A stretch of DNA of 32,000 nt from Delftia acidovorans NBRC 14950 (GTDB lineage Bacteria; Pseudomonadota; Gammaproteobacteria; Burkholderiales; Burkholderiaceae_C): positions 305,026 through 337,025 of the forward strand of contig NZ_BCZP01000005.1 of NCBI RefSeq assembly GCF_001598795.1, read 5' to 3'. Position 1 is the stretch's first letter. Every line of letters starts with the position of its first letter. The notes beneath the pieces were generated by a model. It was not told where the DNA came from and made no database searches. It saw nothing but the letters and a program-made list of their open reading frames with translations. The position numbers and the translations under genes were made by a program. This document shows, piece by piece, positions 9,845 through 32,000 of the stretch.

Positions 9845-9921
9845 CTGCCCGTAGCTCAACCGGATAGAGCAATTGCCTTCTAAGCAATAGGTCGGGGGTT
9901 CGAGTCCCTCCGGGCAGGCCA
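9845..9921 (+). tRNA. tRNA-Arg (anticodon TCT), CCA encoded
   Basis: Hand-folded cloverleaf. Acceptor CTGCCCG/CGGGCAG, D arm GCTC..GAGC, anticodon arm ATTGC-CTTCTAA-GCAAT, T arm GGGGG-TTCGAGT-CCCTC, discriminator G, then CCA. Confidence 0.93.
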
Positions 9922-22313: not shown

Positions 22314-22390
22314 TGGGGTGGCTGATGGGGCTCGAACCCACGACAACAGGAATCACAATCCTGGACTCTACCAACTGAGCTACAGCCACC
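22314..22390 (-). tRNA. tRNA-His (anticodon GTG), copy 1
   Basis: The reverse complement folds as G-1 + GTGGCTG acceptor, GCTC..GAGT D arm, CAGGA-TTGTGAT-TCCTG anticodon arm, GTGGG-TTCGAGC-CCCAT T arm, then CAGCCAC-C-CCA. Confidence 0.92.
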
Positions 22391-22644: not shown

Positions 22645-22721
22645 TGGGGTGGCTGATGGGGCTCGAACCCACGACAACAGGAATCACAATCCTGGACTCT
22701 ACCAACTGAGCTACAGCCACC
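22645..22721 (-). tRNA. tRNA-His (anticodon GTG), copy 2
   Basis: Sequence identical to copy 1. Confidence 0.92.
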
Positions 22722-24949: not shown

Positions 24950-24984
24950 TTGAGGGGATCGCCGGTTACTGTATATTTATACAG
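24950..24984 (+). promoter_or_regulatory. sigma70-like promoter overlapped by a LexA (SOS) box, upstream of umuD
   Basis: TTGAGG (24950-24955), 16 nt, then TATATT (24972-24977). A perfect CTGT-N8-ACAG palindrome CTGTATATTTATACAG lies at 24969-24984, 17 nt before the umuD ATG. Confidence 0.85.
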
Positions 24985-25000
24985 CACAAGGAATTCGGCC

Positions 25001-25444
25001 ATGCCCCACCTCATCACCTCCTCACAACCAGTTGCGGTCACCATGCCGCTAACACCGCTGCCGGCCCCCAACAGCCCAGTGCGCGCTGGCTTTCCCAGCC
25101 CCGCCGAAGACTTCAGTTGTGCGCGCATCGATCTGGCCAAAATCATGGTCAAGCATCCCCAGTGCACGTTCCTGCTGCGCGTCCGCGGCGACTCGATGAT
25201 TGGGGCAGGGATCTTCGACGGCGACCTGTTGGTGGTGGACAAGTACTTGCGCCCCCAGCATGGCGACATCGTTGTGGCTGAAGTTGATGGCGACTTCACA
25301 TGCAAAAGATTCTGGGCCAGGTATGACCAGGTGATGCTCCGCGCCGAGAACCCCACATACCCAGACATCCGTGCGAAAGAAGGCCAACAGCTGGAGATCT
25401 GGGGCGTGGTGACGTGCGCCGTCAAGTCGTTCCGCTCATTGTGA
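25001..25444 (+). CDS. umuD: translesion-synthesis protein UmuD (S24 self-cleaving peptidase)
   Basis: AAGGA SD. Cleavage-site region VRAGFPSPAEDF, compared with E. coli QCGFPSPAADY. Ser in RGDSM and Lys in FTCKRF form the dyad. Confidence 0.88.
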   Translation: MPHLITSSQPVAVTMPLTPLPAPNSPVRAGFPSPAEDFSCARIDLAKIMVKHPQCTFLLRVRGDSMIGAGIFDGDLLVVDKYLRPQHGDIVVAEVDGDFTCKRFWARYDQVMLRAENPTYPDIRAKEGQQLEIWGVVTCAVKSFRSL

Positions 25445-25453
25445 GATCAGGCC

Positions 25454-26740
25454 ATGTTCGCGCTGCTGGACGGCAACAATTTCTACGTGAGCTGCGAGCG
25501 CGTGTTCCGCCCGGCGCTCAAGGGCCTGCCTGTAATTGTCCTGAGCAACAACGACGGCTGCGCCATTGCCCGGTCGGAGGAAGCCAAGGCCCTCGGGATC
25601 AAGATGGGCGAGCCATTCTTTCAGATCAAGCACCGCATCCACCAAGGCCTTGTCGCCCTGTCCGCAAATTTCGTGCTGTACGGAGACATGAGCGACCGCA
25701 TGATGTCCCTTGCCGCAGGCCTAGGGCCAGAACAAGAGATTTACAGCATCGACGAATGCTTTATCGGCCTTGCTGGCGTGCACGACGTGACACGCAGATC
25801 ATGGGCAATCCGTGATCGCATCTTGCGGGGCGTGGGCATCCCCACGTGCATCGGCATCGGCCCCACGAAGACTCTGGCGAAACTTGCCAATCATGTGGCC
25901 AAGGACGCGGAGCGCAAGCCGGGCAGCTACCCGAAGGAGCTGGCTCAGGTGTGCAACCTCACTGAGCTACCAACTGCACAGCTTCGAGAATTGCTGGAAA
26001 GCACGCCTGTGGGTGATGTCTGGGGCGTTGGCCGACGAATCAAGATGCGCCTCTTGGATCACCAGATTTATACGGCATGGGATCTCGCTCAGGCACCACA
26101 GGCCCTGGTGCGCTCACACTTCGGCGTGGTCCTTGAGCGCACGGCGCGGGAGCTTCAAGGCACTTCATGCTTGGGTCTTGAGCACGAGCCGCCGCCAAAG
26201 CAGCAAATTGCATGCACGCGCTCATTCGGCAGACCAGTCACTGACCTCGCCCCGCTGATTGAGGCCGTATCGACATTCGCGCAGCGGGCTGCCGAGAAAC
26301 TGCGTGCGCAGAACAGCAGGGCCGGCGCCGTGCATGTTTTCGCGCATACCAGCCCATTTCGTGACGGACCACGGTTTGCCCGCAGCACCACCATCCAACT
26401 CCCACAGCCCAGCAGCGACACGGCGCTGCTGGTGCGTGCTGCAGCGCGCGGGATCGCCAAGATCTACGAGCCCGGCTATCAGCTCTCGAAGGCCGGCGTG
26501 ATGCTGCTGGATCTCACCCCTGTTTCGATACAGCAAGCCTCATTGCTCGATGAGCCTAACGTCTATGCACGCGACCACAGCCCCCTCATGGAGGCCATGG
26601 ACCGACTCAACGAGCGCTATGGCAAGGGCACGTTGGGAGTGGCCAGCGCATTGCAGGTGGCCGGCTGGGGCATGCGCCAGGACCGCCGCACCCCCCGATA
26701 CACCACGGACCTGCACGACATCCCCATCGCACGAACCTGA
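25454..26740 (+). CDS. umuC: Y-family DNA polymerase V catalytic subunit UmuC
   Basis: MFALLDGNNFYVSCERVFRPALKGLPVIVLSNNDGCAIARSEEAKALGIKMG is a typical UmuC/RumB N-terminus. SIDECF motif present. Length is 428 aa. Confidence 0.9.
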   Translation: MFALLDGNNFYVSCERVFRPALKGLPVIVLSNNDGCAIARSEEAKALGIKMGEPFFQIKHRIHQGLVALSANFVLYGDMSDRMMSLAAGLGPEQEIYSIDECFIGLAGVHDVTRRSWAIRDRILRGVGIPTCIGIGPTKTLAKLANHVAKDAERKPGSYPKELAQVCNLTELPTAQLRELLESTPVGDVWGVGRRIKMRLLDHQIYTAWDLAQAPQALVRSHFGVVLERTARELQGTSCLGLEHEPPPKQQIACTRSFGRPVTDLAPLIEAVSTFAQRAAEKLRAQNSRAGAVHVFAHTSPFRDGPRFARSTTIQLPQPSSDTALLVRAAARGIAKIYEPGYQLSKAGVMLLDLTPVSIQQASLLDEPNVYARDHSPLMEAMDRLNERYGKGTLGVASALQVAGWGMRQDRRTPRYTTDLHDIPIART

Positions 26741-26753
26741 CCTGGAGATCGTT

Positions 26754-26969
26754 ATGAAAATGTCTCTCGAAGTTGAGCTTTATCCCACTTTGCTCACAAT
26801 ACCCCGTTGGTTCGGAACGCCAGAAGTGCAGATCCTGCCCGGCCTGCCTGAGCATTACTTCATAAATGAAGTGGAGCCCGGATGGTTTGTTGTGAGGGAT
26901 CTAGACAATGACCTGATTTACAGCGGTCTCGGGCCAGTGTCTGTAGAACGTTCGCGAGCACCATTTTAA
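26754..26969 (+). CDS. hypothetical 71-aa protein
   Basis: The ATG lies 13 nt after the umuC stop and 5 nt after GGAGA. G+C is intermediate (near 48% by my rough count). No motif recognised. Confidence 0.45.
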   Translation: MKMSLEVELYPTLLTIPRWFGTPEVQILPGLPEHYFINEVEPGWFVVRDLDNDLIYSGLGPVSVERSRAPF

Positions 26970-27124
26970 GATGCAATGGATGGATACGTGTTTATCATAC
27001 AATTTCTTCGGGAACTGCTGCTGTACGTTTGCGGCCCGCCTTCGTCAAGGTCACTAACTGATATAGATAGATTTTGAACAATATCAACCAAACAACGGTT
27101 TTTAGTCATCAACAGGATCACTAG

Positions 27125-27940
27125 ATGAGTACAAATGACAGTCTTCAGTTTTTTCTTCGCCTACTGACGCAAAAACATAGTGCACTTCAAGTAGGATTAA
27201 ATAATTTCCTTGGCGAATTGATTGGAAACGACCCAAAAGCGAAGAAACAAGCAGCAGAAACACTCATAAGAACCGCCAATGATTTGAAAGCTGTTTTATC
27301 AAAAAAAGATATACCCCAATGGCTTTCATCCTTAATTGCTCATCTAACTAATTATTTGTCAGGAACCAGTTCCCCAAATGATATTGTGCGAGGCTTTTTA
27401 CCTCTAAAAGTTGCACTTGATGAACATGTTTGGTCTTTTGAACAAAACCCAGAAGCTTCTTTTGATTTTGATTCAATATTTGAGCATTATAAAAAAGAAA
27501 GCCGTCTACCCCAACTTTTCGACGAGATAGTTGAACTACTTGAAGAAATTCAAAATAGTGGCGAAGTGGATAGCCTTATGATGCTACGCGCCCTCGGCAA
27601 GGTGATCGCCACAATAAAACGCTCCAAAGACGGTTCATATTTCTCAATGAACAGCGCGTGGGATTTTCTTTTAAACTTTCTCAATAACTACTTACTTGCA
27701 GAGCTTTCGAAAATTCCTGTGCTAGGCACTGCCTTGGAAGCGCTGGAAAAAACGATCAAGGAGGCTGATGCAGAAATGTGTAGTTTGCACAAAAATTTAC
27801 GGAATGAATTAATTCGCGTAGTAGGGGAAGATGTAAAGGCATTATCTAGAAACGCATCCTTTCCATTCCTAACATACAACGAATCTGGCAATCTTCAAAC
27901 CCCCAAGCCAATTCCACAACTGCCTAACGTTATTACTTAG
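27125..27940 (+). CDS. hypothetical 271-aa protein, predicted all-helical, on AT-rich foreign DNA
   Basis: It is the only long ORF in a strongly AT-rich stretch (22 G/C in the 59 nt I counted at 27121-27179). It has Lys/Asn/Leu/Glu-rich heptad-like helices. No TM segment or catalytic motif recognised. Confidence 0.7.
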   Translation: MSTNDSLQFFLRLLTQKHSALQVGLNNFLGELIGNDPKAKKQAAETLIRTANDLKAVLSKKDIPQWLSSLIAHLTNYLSGTSSPNDIVRGFLPLKVALDEHVWSFEQNPEASFDFDSIFEHYKKESRLPQLFDEIVELLEEIQNSGEVDSLMMLRALGKVIATIKRSKDGSYFSMNSAWDFLLNFLNNYLLAELSKIPVLGTALEALEKTIKEADAEMCSLHKNLRNELIRVVGEDVKALSRNASFPFLTYNESGNLQTPKPIPQLPNVIT

Positions 27941-27949
27941 CACAAGAAC

Positions 27950-28177
27950 TTAATTTGATACAGGCTCGGGACTTGCGGCGACATCCAATCTTTCCCAGAC
28001 TGCTACATCACAGGCTGGACGTCCCCCGTGCTGACGCGATGGCCCGCAGTTCGCGTAGTCCGAAGAAGTTGGTACCCAGCCCTGCACCGCGCCAGCGTCG
28101 ACGATGCATTCGCGCGAGTGGCGGCCATCGGTAGCGCAGCAGTTGGTGCCTTAGCAGTCGCAGGTGTGTTGTGTCAT
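27950..28177 (-). pseudogene. Cys-rich small ORF interrupted by an in-frame TAA after codon 8
   Basis: The ATG overlaps the lipoprotein stop (ATGA). It reads MTQHTCDC-TAA-GTNCCATDGRHSRECIVDAGAVQGW... The region after the stop has high third-position G+C but no start codon of its own. Confidence 0.4.
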
Positions 28178-28518
28178 GGGTGGCTCTCTGTGGTGGTGCC
28201 TGCGGCCGGCAGGCTCGGAGAAATGGGGCGGTGGCAGTTCGCGAGGGCTGCGGTCAGCCGGATTTCGTAGGCCTCGCGCCGCTCAATCTCTGCCTGGGCT
28301 GCCTGCGTGAATTGGTCCACCGTGGCGCCTGGGCGCAGCTGCTCGGTTTGCCTGGCCGGGCGCTCGGGCACCGGCTCGACGCAAGCCACTGGCACAGGCA
28401 CGTTGACCCGCTGCAGCTCGATGCGTGCTGGTGGGGTCTGACACCCGGCCAGGGCCAGCACGGCAGCCGCAAGCACAGGCCAACGGCTGGAATATTTCCG
28501 GGAATAAATTTCGCTCAC
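28174..28518 (-). CDS. phage lipoprotein (proline-rich, Rz1 / exclusion-lipoprotein-like), function unknown
   Basis: GTG start 8 nt after GGGGAGG. Signal peptide with lipobox LALAGC, then a Pro-rich stretch QTPPARIELQRVNVPVPVACVEPVPERP, then a short helical segment. Confidence 0.65.
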   Translation of the reverse strand: MSEIYSRKYSSRWPVLAAAVLALAGCQTPPARIELQRVNVPVPVACVEPVPERPARQTEQLRPGATVDQFTQAAQAEIERREAYEIRLTAALANCHRPISPSLPAAGTTTESHP

Positions 28519-28622
28519 TTTTGCGACCTCCCCTGCAGCCAGTTGTCCACCCGGTGCAGGGCGCTCGCACAGGTATCGTTCAGAACGGCCGGCAGCGCGG
28601 CCAGGATCTCGTCGACGCGCTG

Positions 28623-28766
28623 TTAATGTGTCCAGGCTCGGGCTGCTGCGTTGGCTCGCGCGGCTTCGCCCTCTCTCTTGCGCCGGTCAGCCAACTCCCG
28701 CAGGTCATCGACAGCATCGCTGCAGGCGGCAGCCAAGTCGCGGGTGCCGTCTCGCTGCTGAGTCAT
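28623..28766 (-). CDS. small 47-aa ORF; an 82-aa reading frame continues past its TAA
   Basis: MTQQRDGTRDLAAACSDAVDDLRELADRRKREGEAARANAAARAWTH-TAA-QRVDEILAALPAVLNDTCASALHRVDNWLQGRSQK*. The post-stop part has very high GC3 (31 of 35 codons by my count) and no start codon. Confidence 0.35.
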   Translation of the reverse strand: MTQQRDGTRDLAAACSDAVDDLRELADRRKREGEAARANAAARAWTH

Positions 28767-28960
28767 CTCGCCCACGCTGGCGCGCTCTGTTGTGGCGGTG
28801 CACGCTGGCTCAGGTAGGCCCTGACCAGCAGTGCGTTGCCGAACAGGCTCGCCAGCAGCGCGAGGACAGCAGCCGTACCTAACTCTGACAGTGGTTAATC
28901 TAAGAGAGAGACGCCCCCCCGGCGAATTCAAGCAAATATCTTACAGAAACCAACCGAATC

Positions 28961-29704
28961 TCAGCGAATGAGATTGCTCTCCCGCAAGGCTTCTTTTTGC
29001 TCCAACATTCGTTTGAAGTCAGGGTTAAGATTTGAAACGATCGATTGACCCAGTAAGATATCGGTCCCTGCAACCATATGAGCTGAGCAGTACATCCAAT
29101 CAAGCGTATCTTCGGTAAAAAATGAGCGCCGTACCGGATCGTGTACCAACTCATGCCGCAAATCGAAAAGCATTTTCAGTTTAGTCAAAGAGCTTTCCTC
29201 GAACGTTGATTCTGTCCCAGGCTGATCTTTTAATCGAATTTGCATGCCGATCACGTTACTCCACAATCCGCCTTTGGGGAGAAACTTCGAAAACACTCTG
29301 TCAATTCGGTCAATATTCTGAAAGGACTGAGAGGCTAGTACAATGTCCAGTGGATGCACATTGTGTTCGTAGAATTCTAAGATTTCGGCGACATCATACT
29401 TCTCAGAATGCAATTGCTTAAGGTGAGGCTCAAAGAAGGATGGTTCACAGCTCTTAAAAATGAGCGATAGCAAGTCTTTATAATACACCTCAATACTTGT
29501 CACAGTCGTGATAACTGCCGACCGTTCAAGTAAGTTTGCCACCTCGGTATTCAGCTCCCCTTCCAAAATAAGCTCGCCCGCCTTAGCGCATTGAGCGAAC
29601 GATTCATAAAAAATCTTGAATGGCCGCCCAAGCCGTTCTGAACGGTTTTGCCTACTTTGAAGTATTTTGTTTAGGTCCATATTTACATATCTTAGCGTAG
29701 GCAT
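28961..29704 (-). CDS. HEPN-like protein (R-x4-H motif), candidate abortive-infection RNase, on AT-rich foreign DNA
   Basis: 247-aa ORF in an AT-rich island. RHELVH lies at residues 183-188 (nt 29141-29158) in LFDLRHELVHD. The upstream helices AVITTVTSIEVYYKDLL and SFQNIDRIDRVF resemble the RiboL-PSP / MAE_28990-type HEPN layout as I remember it. Confidence 0.6.
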   Translation of the reverse strand: MPTLRYVNMDLNKILQSRQNRSERLGRPFKIFYESFAQCAKAGELILEGELNTEVANLLERSAVITTVTSIEVYYKDLLSLIFKSCEPSFFEPHLKQLHSEKYDVAEILEFYEHNVHPLDIVLASQSFQNIDRIDRVFSKFLPKGGLWSNVIGMQIRLKDQPGTESTFEESSLTKLKMLFDLRHELVHDPVRRSFFTEDTLDWMYCSAHMVAGTDILLGQSIVSNLNPDFKRMLEQKEALRESNLIR

Positions 29705-29837
29705 CTGAAAGTATGGTTATCTTTGGCGGTCCATCGCTGCACGCGTAGCTGGTACACACGCCGGTCAGCGCGCCACCTTCGGTCAAGCCTCCCGCATCAG
29801 CGCGGCGTCAGCGGCGTGGCCCTCAGCCGCTCGCAGC

Positions 29838-30368
29838 CTACTGCGCCGCCTCGGTCATCGCGCGGCCGGCATCGTAGGCCCGCTCGCAGGCGCCACCCCG
29901 GCCTCGGGCATCGTCAGCAATGCGCGCCAGCTCTCCCGCTCGCTCATCAGCGCGGCGCTGCAGGTCGGCGAGCAGATCGAGGGCGCCGGTGTCTGGCGCG
30001 CACTGTCCGGCAGCGGCGCGAGCCTGAGCGGCGGCACGGTGGGCCGTGATGTAGTCGGCGAGGTCGCCGCGCAGCCGGCCAGCAGCAGCGCGGGCAGCAG
30101 CAGCGTCCACTGCAGCGCGCGCCTGCGCCTGGTGCGCATCACGGGTGACGTTGTCGAGATTTTCACGGTAGGTGCCTTCCAGTTTTCGGTATCGCTCTGA
30201 CGCCAGTAGCGCCGCCGTAGCGGCTGCCTCGCGATCGCTGGCCATCTCGCTACGCGCCTGCGCGGCATCGCGCTCGGCGGCAAGCCGCCCCAGGGCCTGC
30301 CATGCAAGCAACGCCGCCAGCACCAGGGCCAGCGACTGCCACGCATAGGCCTTGAGACCGGCGATCAT
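29838..30368 (-). CDS. i-spanin (Rz-like, DUF2514-type)
   Basis: The ATG overlaps the endolysin stop (ATGA). It has an N-terminal TM segment AWQSLALVLAALLAWQAL followed by a long Ala/Arg-rich coiled coil. Confidence 0.75.
   Translation of the reverse strand: MIAGLKAYAWQSLALVLAALLAWQALGRLAAERDAAQARSEMASDREAAATAALLASERYRKLEGTYRENLDNVTRDAHQAQARAAVDAAAARAAAGRLRGDLADYITAHRAAAQARAAAGQCAPDTGALDLLADLQRRADERAGELARIADDARGRGGACERAYDAGRAMTEAAQ
29855..30139 (-). CDS. o-spanin (Rz1-like lipoprotein) embedded out of frame within the i-spanin gene
   Basis: MRTRRRRALQWTLLLPALLLAGC lipobox, followed by a Pro-rich mature part (SRPTVPPLRLAPLPDSARQTPAPS). It lies entirely inside 29838..30368 in another frame, as in lambda Rz/Rz1. 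Confidence 0.75.
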   Translation of the reverse strand: MRTRRRRALQWTLLLPALLLAGCAATSPTTSRPTVPPLRLAPLPDSARQTPAPSICSPTCSAALMSERESWRALLTMPEAGVAPASGPTMPAAR

Positions 30369-30979
30369 GGTGCCGCCCGTACCGCGACCAGCGCTGCGCT
30401 GAAATGCCCGTCCCTGCCCCACTGTGCGCACAGCTCGCGGGTGGCATCGCGGCGATCAACAAGGCCAGGCAGCCGCGTGGGCACGCCGTTCACGGTGCCG
30501 TGGACCCATCGAGGCATCTGCAGGCATGCAGCATCGAGTTGCCCGGCGTTCGCCAGCCGCATGACCGTCGTGTCAGGTGCCAGCGCCGAGGGCACGTTGT
30601 AGGCCATATCGATAAAGCTGGCCTGCACCCACACGTTGTAGCTGTCCCAGTTCCGCAGGGCGCGGCGCGCCAGGCGCTCGGCCTCACGGTATTTGGGTCG
30701 CTCCAGGCGCTCGCAGTCCTCGGGCTTGTAGTAGCGCCCCGCCACAACTTCGGTGCCTGTGACGCCCGCGCAAACTGTCAGCGGCTGGCCCTTGCCCAGG
30801 CGGTCAACGTAAGGCGTGCCGATATGCCGGCCGCTGCTCTCGTAGTGCAGCCCGATCTCGCGGGCCAGCGTCACGGCAGCGCTGGGCCTGGTCTCCTGCG
30901 TGGCGACATAACCACCGGCAGCGGTGGCTGCCAAGCCGGCGGCCGTAGCCAGCAGTCGATTACGCAATATCTCGTTCAT
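30365..30979 (-). CDS. phage endolysin, GH24 lysozyme-like, with SAR-type N-terminus
   Basis: Weakly hydrophobic Gly/Ala-rich N-terminus LLATAAGLAATAAGGYVA. Motifs YESSG...YVDRLGKGQPLTVCAGVTG, SFIDMAYNV and GLVDRRDATRELC are as in P21-type lysozymes. The ATG overlaps the holin stop. Confidence 0.75.
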   Translation of the reverse strand: MNEILRNRLLATAAGLAATAAGGYVATQETRPSAAVTLAREIGLHYESSGRHIGTPYVDRLGKGQPLTVCAGVTGTEVVAGRYYKPEDCERLERPKYREAERLARRALRNWDSYNVWVQASFIDMAYNVPSALAPDTTVMRLANAGQLDAACLQMPRWVHGTVNGVPTRLPGLVDRRDATRELCAQWGRDGHFSAALVAVRAAP

Positions 30980-31278
30980 CGGCCACCTCCGCCAATGGTC
31001 AGCGCCTTCCAGAAGGCCAAGCCTGCGCTGGCCATCATCACGATGTAGGTGATGGGTTTGGCCACCTTGCCGATCCAGTTGAGCACCTTGAAAGCGCCCT
31101 GCGCGGCGGCGAAGAACTCCACCATTTCGGCCGTGTTGACACGAACCTTTTCCGTGGCCTCGGTGTTTGCGCGCAGCTCTGCCTCGATGCGCGTCATGCG
31201 CGCATCCCCCTCGTCCAACCGCGCATTGATGGTCCGCGCCGTGTTCGGAGTGATTGCGTTTCCATAGTCGTCCTGCAT
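30976..31278 (-). CDS. putative holin / small membrane protein
   Basis: AGGAG SD overlaps the upstream stop codon. The 100-aa product has C-terminal hydrophobic segments (AFKVLNWIG, ITYIVMMASAGLAFWKAL). It lies immediately upstream of the endolysin. Confidence 0.5.
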   Translation of the reverse strand: MQDDYGNAITPNTARTINARLDEGDARMTRIEAELRANTEATEKVRVNTAEMVEFFAAAQGAFKVLNWIGKVAKPITYIVMMASAGLAFWKALTIGGGGR

Positions 31279-31286
31279 GGGCACTC

Positions 31287-31799
31287 CTAAAGCGTTGCCG
31301 CCAAAACAAAGGCCTCGTCCAGGGATTGGGGAGTGCCTCCAAGCTGCGCCCAAAGACCTGCAAGAAACGGGTTGCCACGCTCCCAGGTGTCGGCCTCGTA
31401 CTCAATTTGAGCCTCACGCTTTTGCACTGGGTCCGTGATCGCCGCAATGGCCGCCTCGGCTTCATCGAGCATCCCGAATGCAAGAAGGGCAAGACGCCCC
31501 TGCCGGCGCGTGCAGGACTTGGGGATCAGCGCGGCCGCAGCCTCATCGCGTAGGCGCTGCAGCTCGGCCAACTCCTCTTCGGACAGCGGCACGACGGACC
31601 ACTGCTGCCGCCACACGCCGTCGATTTCCATAGGCTCGATCTCGACGGGCTTTTGCGTGTCCGCGTCGTAAGCGGGCGCATCCGATGGCTCAACGAGCGC
31701 ATAGCACTCCAGATGCTGGGCCATCATCGTGAGCGGGTGCAGCTCCTGGATCTGAGCAACGCTCAGCGGGTATTGCCCGGTTTCGGTGTTGATGTACAT
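31287..31799 (-). CDS. phage protein downstream of tail fibre (tail-fibre assembly / DUF4376-like)
   Basis: The ATG lies 5 nt after GAGGA. The call rests on its position after the tail-fibre gene and on the C-terminal half RRQGRLALLAFGMLDEAEAAIAAI...IEYEADTWERGNPF, which resembles that family from memory. Confidence 0.45.
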   Translation of the reverse strand: MYINTETGQYPLSVAQIQELHPLTMMAQHLECYALVEPSDAPAYDADTQKPVEIEPMEIDGVWRQQWSVVPLSEEELAELQRLRDEAAAALIPKSCTRRQGRLALLAFGMLDEAEAAIAAITDPVQKREAQIEYEADTWERGNPFLAGLWAQLGGTPQSLDEAFVLAATL

Positions 31800-31807
31800 G
31801 CTGATCC

Positions 31808-32000
31808 TCAAATAACGCGGCCGAGGCGCGTGCCGGTTGCGAGCCAGGTGACGTATGCGCTACCGTCGAGGTAGTAGCCAGCTGCAGCGGGCGGACTCCC
31901 AGGGACAGAGCCTGTCGCACCAGTTCCTCCGCTGGATGCGTTTTCGCCATTCGCTCCTGCAACCCCAATAGCGCCACCGGATCCGCCAAACCCGCCCTGG
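31808..32000 (-). CDS. 3' end of a Gly-rich phage tail-fibre-like gene (5' end outside the window)
   Basis: Open frame to the window edge. It reads ...GGFGGSGGAIGVAGANGENASSGGTGATGSVPGSPPAAAGYYLDGSAYVTWLATGTRLGRVI*. It is absent from the ORF track because it has no start codon in the window. Confidence 0.45.
   Translation of the reverse strand, partial: QGGFGGSGGAIGVAGANGENASSGGTGATGSVPGSPPAAAGYYLDGSAYVTWLATGTRLGRVI

Follow-up and report, generated by a model that had tools for sequence, protein, structure and literature searches.

Known HEPN proteins and the Delftia locus

HEPN enzymes carry Rx4-6H motifs, and the motifs of two protomers join into a metal-independent ribonuclease (RNase) site (PMC3710099; PMC13043305). 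In the published layout of the domain, a conserved acid is located in helix 2 and an insert is frequently found between helices 2 and 3 (PMC3710099). Here we analysed a stretch of 32,000 nucleotides from Delftia acidovorans NBRC 14950 (contig NZ_BCZP01000005.1, positions 305,026 to 337,025; the whole stretch is called the window in the following, and all coordinates are counted from its first letter), which harbours a gene for a HEPN protein on the minus strand (29704 to 28961), close to the lysis genes of a prophage. Judged by analogy with described systems, this gene probably, although by no means certainly, encodes a self-contained RNase of abortive infection (Abi), which a D. acidovorans prophage harbours as cargo at its lysis-gene end, in a slot prone to recombination.

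The Ribo L-PSP-HEPN family (PF18735) was defined computationally by Anantharaman et al. in 2013 (PMC3710099). It shares with the window protein the Rx4-6H motif, in which the Arg is followed by a polar residue, as well as the helix-2 acid, the insert, the position of the motif in helix 3 and the occurrence in bacteria only. However, the founding description emphasises proteins that are fused to endoRNase L-PSP or share an operon with ParB, whereas the clade of the window protein consists of solo proteins of ~230 amino acids without either of them; an L-PSP or ParB domain was found neither in the HEPN protein nor in longer homologues or sampled neighbours. In a review table, PF18735 is assigned to ApeA, PD-T4-2, PD-T4-5 and PD-T7-3 (PMC10952713), and because these are validated anti-phage proteins, HEPN domains of PF18735 do have a role in defence. 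No PADLOC model of these four matches the window protein at an expectation value (E) of <=1, so it falls outside their families. At the same threshold, AbiU and every other PADLOC system gave no match to it. The 2013 paper also calls the Ribo L-PSP-HEPN family 'distantly related' to the lactococcal proteins AbiD, AbiD1 and AbiF of the Abi_2 HEPN family (PMC3710099), which are single-gene Abi proteins with a HEPN domain, as the window protein is proposed to be. However, at E<=1 the latter matches neither Abi_2 in Pfam nor AbiD/AbiF in PADLOC, and the kinship is taken from the 2013 paper; our searches did not reproduce it.

In functional terms, the nearest precedent is HepS from the Salmonella prophage Gifsy-1 (PDB 9OIJ/9OIK), a solo HEPN protein of Abi. 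It is made constitutively and rests as an inactive tetramer until a tail-tip protein of a phage activates it, whereupon it cuts the anticodon loops of tRNAs (PMC13043305). Both HepS and the window protein are prophage-encoded HEPN proteins of less than 250 amino acids with a canonical Rx4H motif, both lack a partner or inhibitor gene, and both are encoded in an accessory-gene region of the prophage. However, the motif of HepS comprises residues 100-105, compared to 175-180 in the window protein (in its probable 239-residue form, see below), and HepS is situated in the replication/antirepressor region, whereas the window gene lies downstream of lysis genes. Searches with phmmer and a family profile at E<=10 revealed no homology to HepS (STM14_3211; 9OIJ), which was also absent from the top 50 Foldseek matches in the PDB, where the presence of 9OIJ is assumed from its publication date. 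HepS would be the best functional model, and the window protein is like HepS at most, not a member of its family.

Finally, pairs of a HEPN toxin and a minimal nucleotidyltransferase (MNT) also comprise a HEPN RNase with an Rx4H motif, and 7bxo_F is a weak structural neighbour of the window protein (template modelling (TM) score 0.45, target-normalised). However, these toxins are about half the size of the window protein, which possesses a large insert between helices 2 and 3 and no MNT neighbour. A HEPN-MNT toxin-antitoxin system was rejected for our locus, since no MNT gene was detected in the window and no conserved neighbour in 20-22 loci.

Profile matches, conserved residues and predicted fold

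The sole Pfam match of the protein is PF18735 (HEPN_RiboL-PSP; E=1e-7), which reached 32.5 bits at a gathering score of 28.4 and aligned residues 52-198 with positions 23-168 of the 191-position profile. The same profile is matched at E<=0.1 by 44 of 45 homologues. Several members of the clade stay below the gathering score, and therefore the clade is a peripheral subfamily of PF18735. An initial annotation of this DNA had read the motif RHELVH as a HEPN signature, and this reading is well supported by the profile match, by the near-invariance of R183 and H188 and by the HEPN-like layout of the structural model.

The translation contains LFDLRHELVHD, in which RHELVH represents residues 183-188. 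The motif is encoded by the codons 29158-29141 on the minus strand, i.e. precisely at nucleotides 29141-29158 as had been annotated, and it corresponds to R-x4-6-H with a polar residue after the Arg. We number the residues according to the open reading frame (ORF) of 247 codons; R183/H188 equal R175/H180 in the 239-residue form. It must be mentioned that the bare motif carries little weight: R-x4-H appeared in 36% and R-x4-6-H in 73% of shuffled versions of the HEPN protein. The bare R-x4-H motif is not above chance and provides no evidence by itself; it gains significance through the match to the profile, through its conservation and through the fold.

Conservation was assessed at two depths. 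Among 5.8 billion proteins, 111 homologues were found, mostly of ~228 amino acids and many of them tagged with PF18735 beforehand. Invariant in 45 aligned homologues are R61, V68, E72, K102, P118, S127, F128, Q129 and F138 as well as F180, R183, H184, L186, V187 and H188, and the window protein has every one of these residues. A profile search of 1.84 billion sequences resulted in 468 cluster representatives at E<=1e-3, nearly all with a length of 220-250 amino acids. From these, an alignment of 114 sequences was built that consists of the window protein and 113 full-length representatives, distant ones included. Here, R183 and H188 are each kept in 113/114 sequences, E72 (codon 29489-29491, minus strand) in 110/114 and H184 in 108/114, so that the catalytic pair named in the initial annotation is almost universally conserved. 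The homologues P0072, P0073, P0086, P0096, P0100 and P0265 are longer (368-381 amino acids) with the HEPN part at the N-terminus; their C-terminal extension of ~150 amino acids has no Pfam match and is possibly a sensor or effector add-on.

The AlphaFold2 model of the protein is of high confidence (predicted local distance difference test, pLDDT, 93.7; predicted TM score, pTM, 0.90) and is helical apart from one beta-hairpin at residues 155-167. It comprises the helices 28-47, 53-85, 170-188 and 198-224, with E72 in the second and RHELVH at the C-terminal end of the third, an insert of residues 88-167 between helices 2 and 3, and a loop that leads from helix 170-188 to helix 198-224. The helix order agrees with the published HEPN layout (PMC3710099), as compared by secondary-structure order only, and the motif takes the same place as in canonical HEPN proteins. 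The top neighbour among the viral models in BFVD is a phage protein labelled 'MAE-28990/MAE-18760-like HEPN' (prob 0.99, TM 0.44-0.50), and the best non-random matches of Foldseek in the PDB are Csm6 (E 0.23-0.4) and the HEPN toxin 7bxo. The earlier guess of a RiboL-PSP / MAE-type scaffold agrees with both the Pfam assignment and the BFVD neighbour. Taken together, we have high confidence that the protein encoded in the window has a HEPN fold, belongs to the RiboL-PSP type and retains its catalytic signature intact.

Extent, composition and selection of the gene

The initial annotation had listed a gene for 247 amino acids without giving its strand. The ORF is intact, runs from 29704 to 28961 on the minus strand and indeed has 247 codons, whereas the product is probably smaller. 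The mechanical ORF call extends up to 29704, and translation probably starts at M9 (ATG at 29680), which gives 239 amino acids and a gene extent of 28961-29680. This start is preferred because the consensus of 45 homologues begins there, RefSeq annotates a protein of 239 amino acids (WP_155294200.1, 'HEPN domain-containing protein', locus DR66_2058) and the copy on contig L074, which carries a related prophage end, keeps M9; in that copy, M1 of the window ORF is replaced by Ile. No good Shine-Dalgarno sequence precedes either candidate start, as had been noted before, and neither a promoter nor a terminator was detected around the gene, with no sigma-70-like promoter on its strand.

The description as an AT-rich gene on DNA of foreign composition also held. 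Its guanine plus cytosine (GC) content is 0.442, compared to 0.719 in the spanin gene, 0.653 in the first 26 kb of the window and 0.65-0.72 in the surroundings of the gene. The same pattern is seen elsewhere: in 20/20 loci from diverse bacteria, the GC content of the HEPN gene is below that of the 3-kb flank on either side; two Rhodobacteraceae, for example, have 0.45-0.47 in the gene and 0.67-0.70 in the flanks. To judge from this foreign composition, the gene appears to have been acquired horizontally. Within D. acidovorans it is rare, with one RefSeq protein on 3 contigs. The window and L074 copies share 96.7% amino-acid identity and differ by 13 synonymous and 8 non-synonymous substitutions, which corresponds to a ratio of non-synonymous to synonymous rates (dN/dS) of 0.16. 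Hence, the gene is under purifying selection.

A gene without a conserved partner

Most homologues are chromosomal and situated outside prophages; they stand singly in small islets that are surrounded by housekeeping genes. Their islet neighbours include a Fic protein together with a DpnII/MboI enzyme, the toxin CptA, BrnT/BrnA and a Tn7-like element with BilD. One plasmid homologue with 39% identity (L073, 2532-3227) is annotated as hypothetical on pALWEK1.5 of Acinetobacter lwoffii (NZ_CP080639.1), an 8.2-kb plasmid of a permafrost isolate, and is found there between chromate-resistance genes and a PemK/MazF toxin gene.

Several searches were made for a partner or antitoxin. All-against-all BLASTP across 22 loci revealed no shared neighbour ORF of >=70 amino acids within 5 kb, and 20 loci had neither a shared ORF of >=25 amino acids within 700 bp nor shared upstream DNA. 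A conserved partner gene was rejected as nothing is common to these 20-22 loci at either size cut-off. An MNT gene is absent from the window and is not conserved near the HEPN gene in the 20-22 loci. At the RNA level, region 26500-29838 has no tandem repeats, the window gave no Rfam match, and intergenic folds near the HEPN gene were no better than those of shuffled sequences, with no stable hairpin between the lysis genes and the HEPN gene. Hence, an RNA antitoxin or regulatory RNA was dismissed, and so was a type III toxin-antitoxin system, for which upstream tandem direct repeats, an Rfam match and conserved upstream DNA are all missing. We also looked for insertion scars; where the AT-rich segment begins and ends, neither direct nor inverted repeats were convincing. 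The HEPN protein stands alone, with no conserved partner gene, small ORF, repeat RNA or MNT. The initial annotation had seen no cognate antitoxin in the window, and this observation can be extended to 22-24 loci in other bacteria.

A variable slot between spanin genes and umuC

The HEPN gene belongs to a segment of 2.76 kb (26968-29726) at which the prophage differs from its relatives, and which also contains a GC-rich block with a lipoprotein gene and a convergent gene for 271 amino acids. BLASTN homology to related prophage ends breaks off at 29726 and sets in again at 26968, from where it runs through umuC, and therefore we regard this segment as a variable cargo slot with conserved flanks. 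On the right, the gene of an Rz-like i-spanin (DUF2514, PF10721, phrog_312; 29838-30431, minus strand) is located directly upstream of the HEPN gene, and the earlier statement that the HEPN gene lies just downstream of the spanin genes proved correct, with 133 nt from the i-spanin gene. The left boundary is formed by umuC, encoding a Y-family polymerase V subunit of the IMS family (25454-26740, plus strand), which is 89-92% conserved in the related loci L032 and L052. A megablast search with positions 26500-32000 against the phage collection gave no match, so this collection contains no near-identical phage genome.

Using the spanin as a probe, we collected 41 related prophage lysis cassettes, and 0/41 contain the HEPN gene, the lipoprotein gene or the 271-amino-acid gene. 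The slot contents have a size of 0.7-2.9 kb in the relatives L028, L031, L032, L034, L040, L048, L052 and L074. They include AbiU in L048 (PADLOC E=1e-108; Pfam AIPR), a HEPN protein of another family (PF05168) together with an FRG-domain PDC-S15 candidate in L031, and a Dam-type orphan methylase in L052. A profile comparison showed no similarity between the window HEPN protein and the PF05168 protein of L031; the kinship was rejected, and therefore the two represent independent acquisitions. Thus, the Delftia slot combines a fixed position and conserved flanks with a content that varies between related prophages and includes Abi and other defence genes. It looks like a prophage defence hotspot, as defined from a handful of loci. 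Compared to previously described hotspots, it differs in phage lineage, in host (Delftia, Comamonadaceae) and in its position between the spanin genes and umuDC.

In L074, the HEPN gene and the 271-amino-acid gene are adjacent, convergent and only 390 bp apart, while ~600 bp of the window (28041-28645) are missing. When window and L074 are compared, the HEPN gene has a synonymous divergence (dS) of 0.089 and the 271-amino-acid gene one of 0.378 (L074 5838-6611 and 4633-5448, respectively), which suggests gene-by-gene recombination within the slot.

Proposed function and alternative explanations

If the HEPN protein works in analogy to the described enzymes, it would oligomerise, and two R-x4-H motifs together with E72 would form a composite metal-independent RNase site. 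In the lysogen, it would stay inactive without a separate antitoxin, either auto-inhibited or as a resting oligomer, until an infecting phage provides the activating cue. The active protein might then cut cellular RNA, such as tRNA anticodon loops or mRNA, and this cleavage would halt translation and abort the infection, thereby protecting the lysogen population and the prophage.

The grounds for this Abi function are contextual and come from two sides, the slot cargo of related prophages and the defence neighbours of homologues. The latter were identified among 139 genes within 4 kb of the homologues in 22 genome loci and include DRT2 (E=6e-210), PD-Lambda-5 A and B, a TIR effector, PD-T4-6, SoFic and PDC-M37B. 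Several observations weigh against the proposed function or its premises. The defence neighbours remain suggestive, as they are not a measured enrichment and have no matched background. A tblastn search found no homologue in 50,697 phage records, and a single one was detected among 72,556 plasmids. Part of the relatives' slot cargo consists of low-GC genes of unknown function (L028, L032 and L034). No model from PADLOC (E<=1), PHROGs or NCBIfam matches the HEPN protein, Foldseek found no significant neighbour in the PDB (best E about 0.2), and searches of PDB sequences with phmmer and the family profile at E<=10 returned no HEPN chain but only noise. In the literature searched, no experimental work on the Ribo L-PSP-HEPN family was found. 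Furthermore, the gene comes 133 nt after the late lysis genes and shares their strand, and with neither a promoter nor a terminator detected around it, its expression in the lysogen is an assumption.

This last point leads to the question whether the gene could serve the phage itself. Co-transcribed with endolysin and spanins in the lytic cycle, a late gene of this kind might shut off host translation, degrade host or competitor RNA or act in counter-defence. The short distance to the lysis cassette on the same strand, the lack of a terminator-like site or stable hairpin in between and the missing sigma-70-like promoter on the HEPN strand are consistent with such a role. However, the gene is dispensable for lysis because 0/41 related lysis cassettes carry it, the 50,697 phage records contain no relative, and most homologues are chromosomal solo genes outside prophages. 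Moreover, the relatives fill the slot with classic defence genes that are expressed in lysogens and frequently lie on the opposite strand, and we consider a phage-serving late gene distinctly improbable. An unlikely explanation, too, is a selfish addiction toxin whose main effect would be to stabilise the prophage or islet rather than to fend off phages. Its antitoxin would have escaped recognition, being an antisense RNA in cis, a leader RNA, an inhibitory segment of the protein itself or a factor of the host. HEPN toxins of toxin-antitoxin systems are well known (HEPN-MNT; PMC3710099), 7bxo is among the structural matches, homologues are found beside the toxin-antitoxin genes BrnT/BrnA, CptA and PemK (pALWEK1.5), and the gene is always compositionally foreign and alone in small islets. 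Nevertheless, the loci show no MNT, no conserved adjacent ORF of any size, no conserved upstream DNA, no tandem repeat and no known RNA, and a toxin that is constitutively active and has no antitoxin would not be maintained by purifying selection as observed here (dN/dS 0.16).

The convergent neighbour (27125-27940) could be thought to act as a sensor, regulator or immunity factor in a module of two genes, given that both genes are low-GC cargo under purifying selection and adjoin each other in L074, 390 bp apart and with no lipoprotein block between them. Against this stand the 24 HEPN loci, none of which has a relative of the 271-amino-acid gene, and the sampled loci of the latter, which are devoid of a HEPN gene. 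Furthermore, the fourfold dS difference (0.089 versus 0.378) implies separate histories and the convergent orientation speaks against an operon, which makes such a module very unlikely. Finally, if the transferred gene were catalytically inert or in decay and now had no function, this would explain why no recognisable Shine-Dalgarno sequence or promoter is present and why the gene is so rare in the species (one RefSeq protein on 3 contigs). However, a remnant is hardly compatible with an intact ORF, the presence of all family-invariant residues, a dN/dS of 0.16 and a confident structural model, and appears extremely improbable.

Coming back to the proposed function in Abi, the question arises how far it may be generalised. 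The solo clade of ~230 amino acids and RiboL-PSP type (~470 cluster representatives from Proteobacteria, Verrucomicrobia and others) might represent an unrecognised single-protein Abi family that is absent from defence catalogues and combines sensor and effector in one chain. In this case, the insert 88-167, with its beta-hairpin and a conserved S-F-Q-N patch, and a basic N-terminal segment (R18, R21, R24, P28) could serve as trigger- or RNA-recognition elements unlike those of HepS. We regard this extension as conceivable but tentative, with the balance leaning slightly to the doubtful side. If true, the clade would be a candidate for a new family of single-gene anti-phage nucleases, compact (239 amino acids in the window protein), partner-free and with identified catalytic residues, which no current defence-finder model covers. 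At the level of the domain, the window protein is most likely a further member of a known HEPN family and not a new system, because RefSeq already labels it 'HEPN domain-containing protein' and Pfam and the literature have included the family since 2013. Our view of HEPN nucleases would not change either, since the principle is already set by HepS, ApeA and the lactococcal Abi proteins. Furthermore, prophages of Delftia and Comamonadaceae would have a cargo hotspot in the slot that separates the spanin genes from umuDC, which could be mined for defence genes, and the family of the 271-amino-acid protein is one candidate for further defence genes from this slot.

Other genes of the slot and its flanks

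The 271-amino-acid gene (DR66_2060; 27125-27940, plus strand) is AT-rich with a GC content of 0.39, is convergent with the HEPN gene and belongs to a widespread, unannotated and all-helical family. This family has at least 129 homologues with a mean column identity of 62%, almost all of which have a length of 271 amino acids, and no match was found in Pfam, PHROG, PADLOC or NCBIfam. Between window and L074, dN/dS of the gene is 0.21. The members are solo insertions in many Proteobacteria, for instance between scpB and scpA in Vogesella, and a homologue in Comamonas testosteroni adjoins an AAA_15/21/23 ATPase. A relative of the 271-amino-acid protein was present in none of the 24 HEPN loci, and the HEPN gene in none of the sampled loci of the 271-amino-acid family. 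The structural model is all-helical and of moderate quality (pLDDT 79, pTM 0.51); it gave no meaningful PDB neighbour, and a structure-based assignment of function was abandoned.

Between the two AT-rich genes, a GC-rich block occupies 27950-28960 on the minus strand. It contains a GC-rich lipoprotein gene (28174-28518, minus strand; 114 amino acids, LAGC lipobox; phrog_3580, function unknown), which is missing from L074, and upstream of it a transmembrane-like stretch and a coiled-coil-like piece in different frames. The idea that region 28519-28960 and the lipoprotein are a degraded second spanin pair received no support, as PHROGs gave only weak matches to families of unknown function.

In the lysis cassette, a gene for an Rz1-like o-spanin (29855-30139, minus strand; 94 amino acids, signal peptide ending LLLAGC; phrog_11621, E=3e-19) is embedded in the i-spanin gene. 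Upstream, the ORF at 30365-31492 (minus strand; 375 amino acids from a TTG) encodes an endolysin (Phage_lysozyme, phrog_7). Its true start is probably internal, because the lysozyme domain is confined to residues 227-350 of 375. An ORF of 125 amino acids (30976-31353, minus strand) upstream of the lysozyme domain has a hydrophobic C-terminal segment (…KPITYIVMMASAGLAFWKALTIGGGGR) and may encode a holin or another membrane protein of the lysis cassette.

The left 25 kb of the window represent ordinary chromosome with DUF1631, ABC-F, PilY1, PpiD and three tRNAs. Two genes for tRNA-His(GTG) are located just past ppiD at 22314-22389 and 22645-22720 (minus strand), 330 bp apart, and tRNA-Arg(TCT) is found further left at 9845-9921 (plus strand). 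The opposite end of the prophage lies beyond the window. Between ppiD and the slot, region 24950-26740 (plus strand) contains umuC and a umuD-like ORF, which is named by its position only. The same order is kept in L052, with identities of 92% for umuC and 95% for the umuD-like ORF and a protein identity of 98% for ppiD. Exact copies of UmuC, PilY1, the 271-amino-acid protein and the lipoprotein of the window exist in a D. acidovorans genome.

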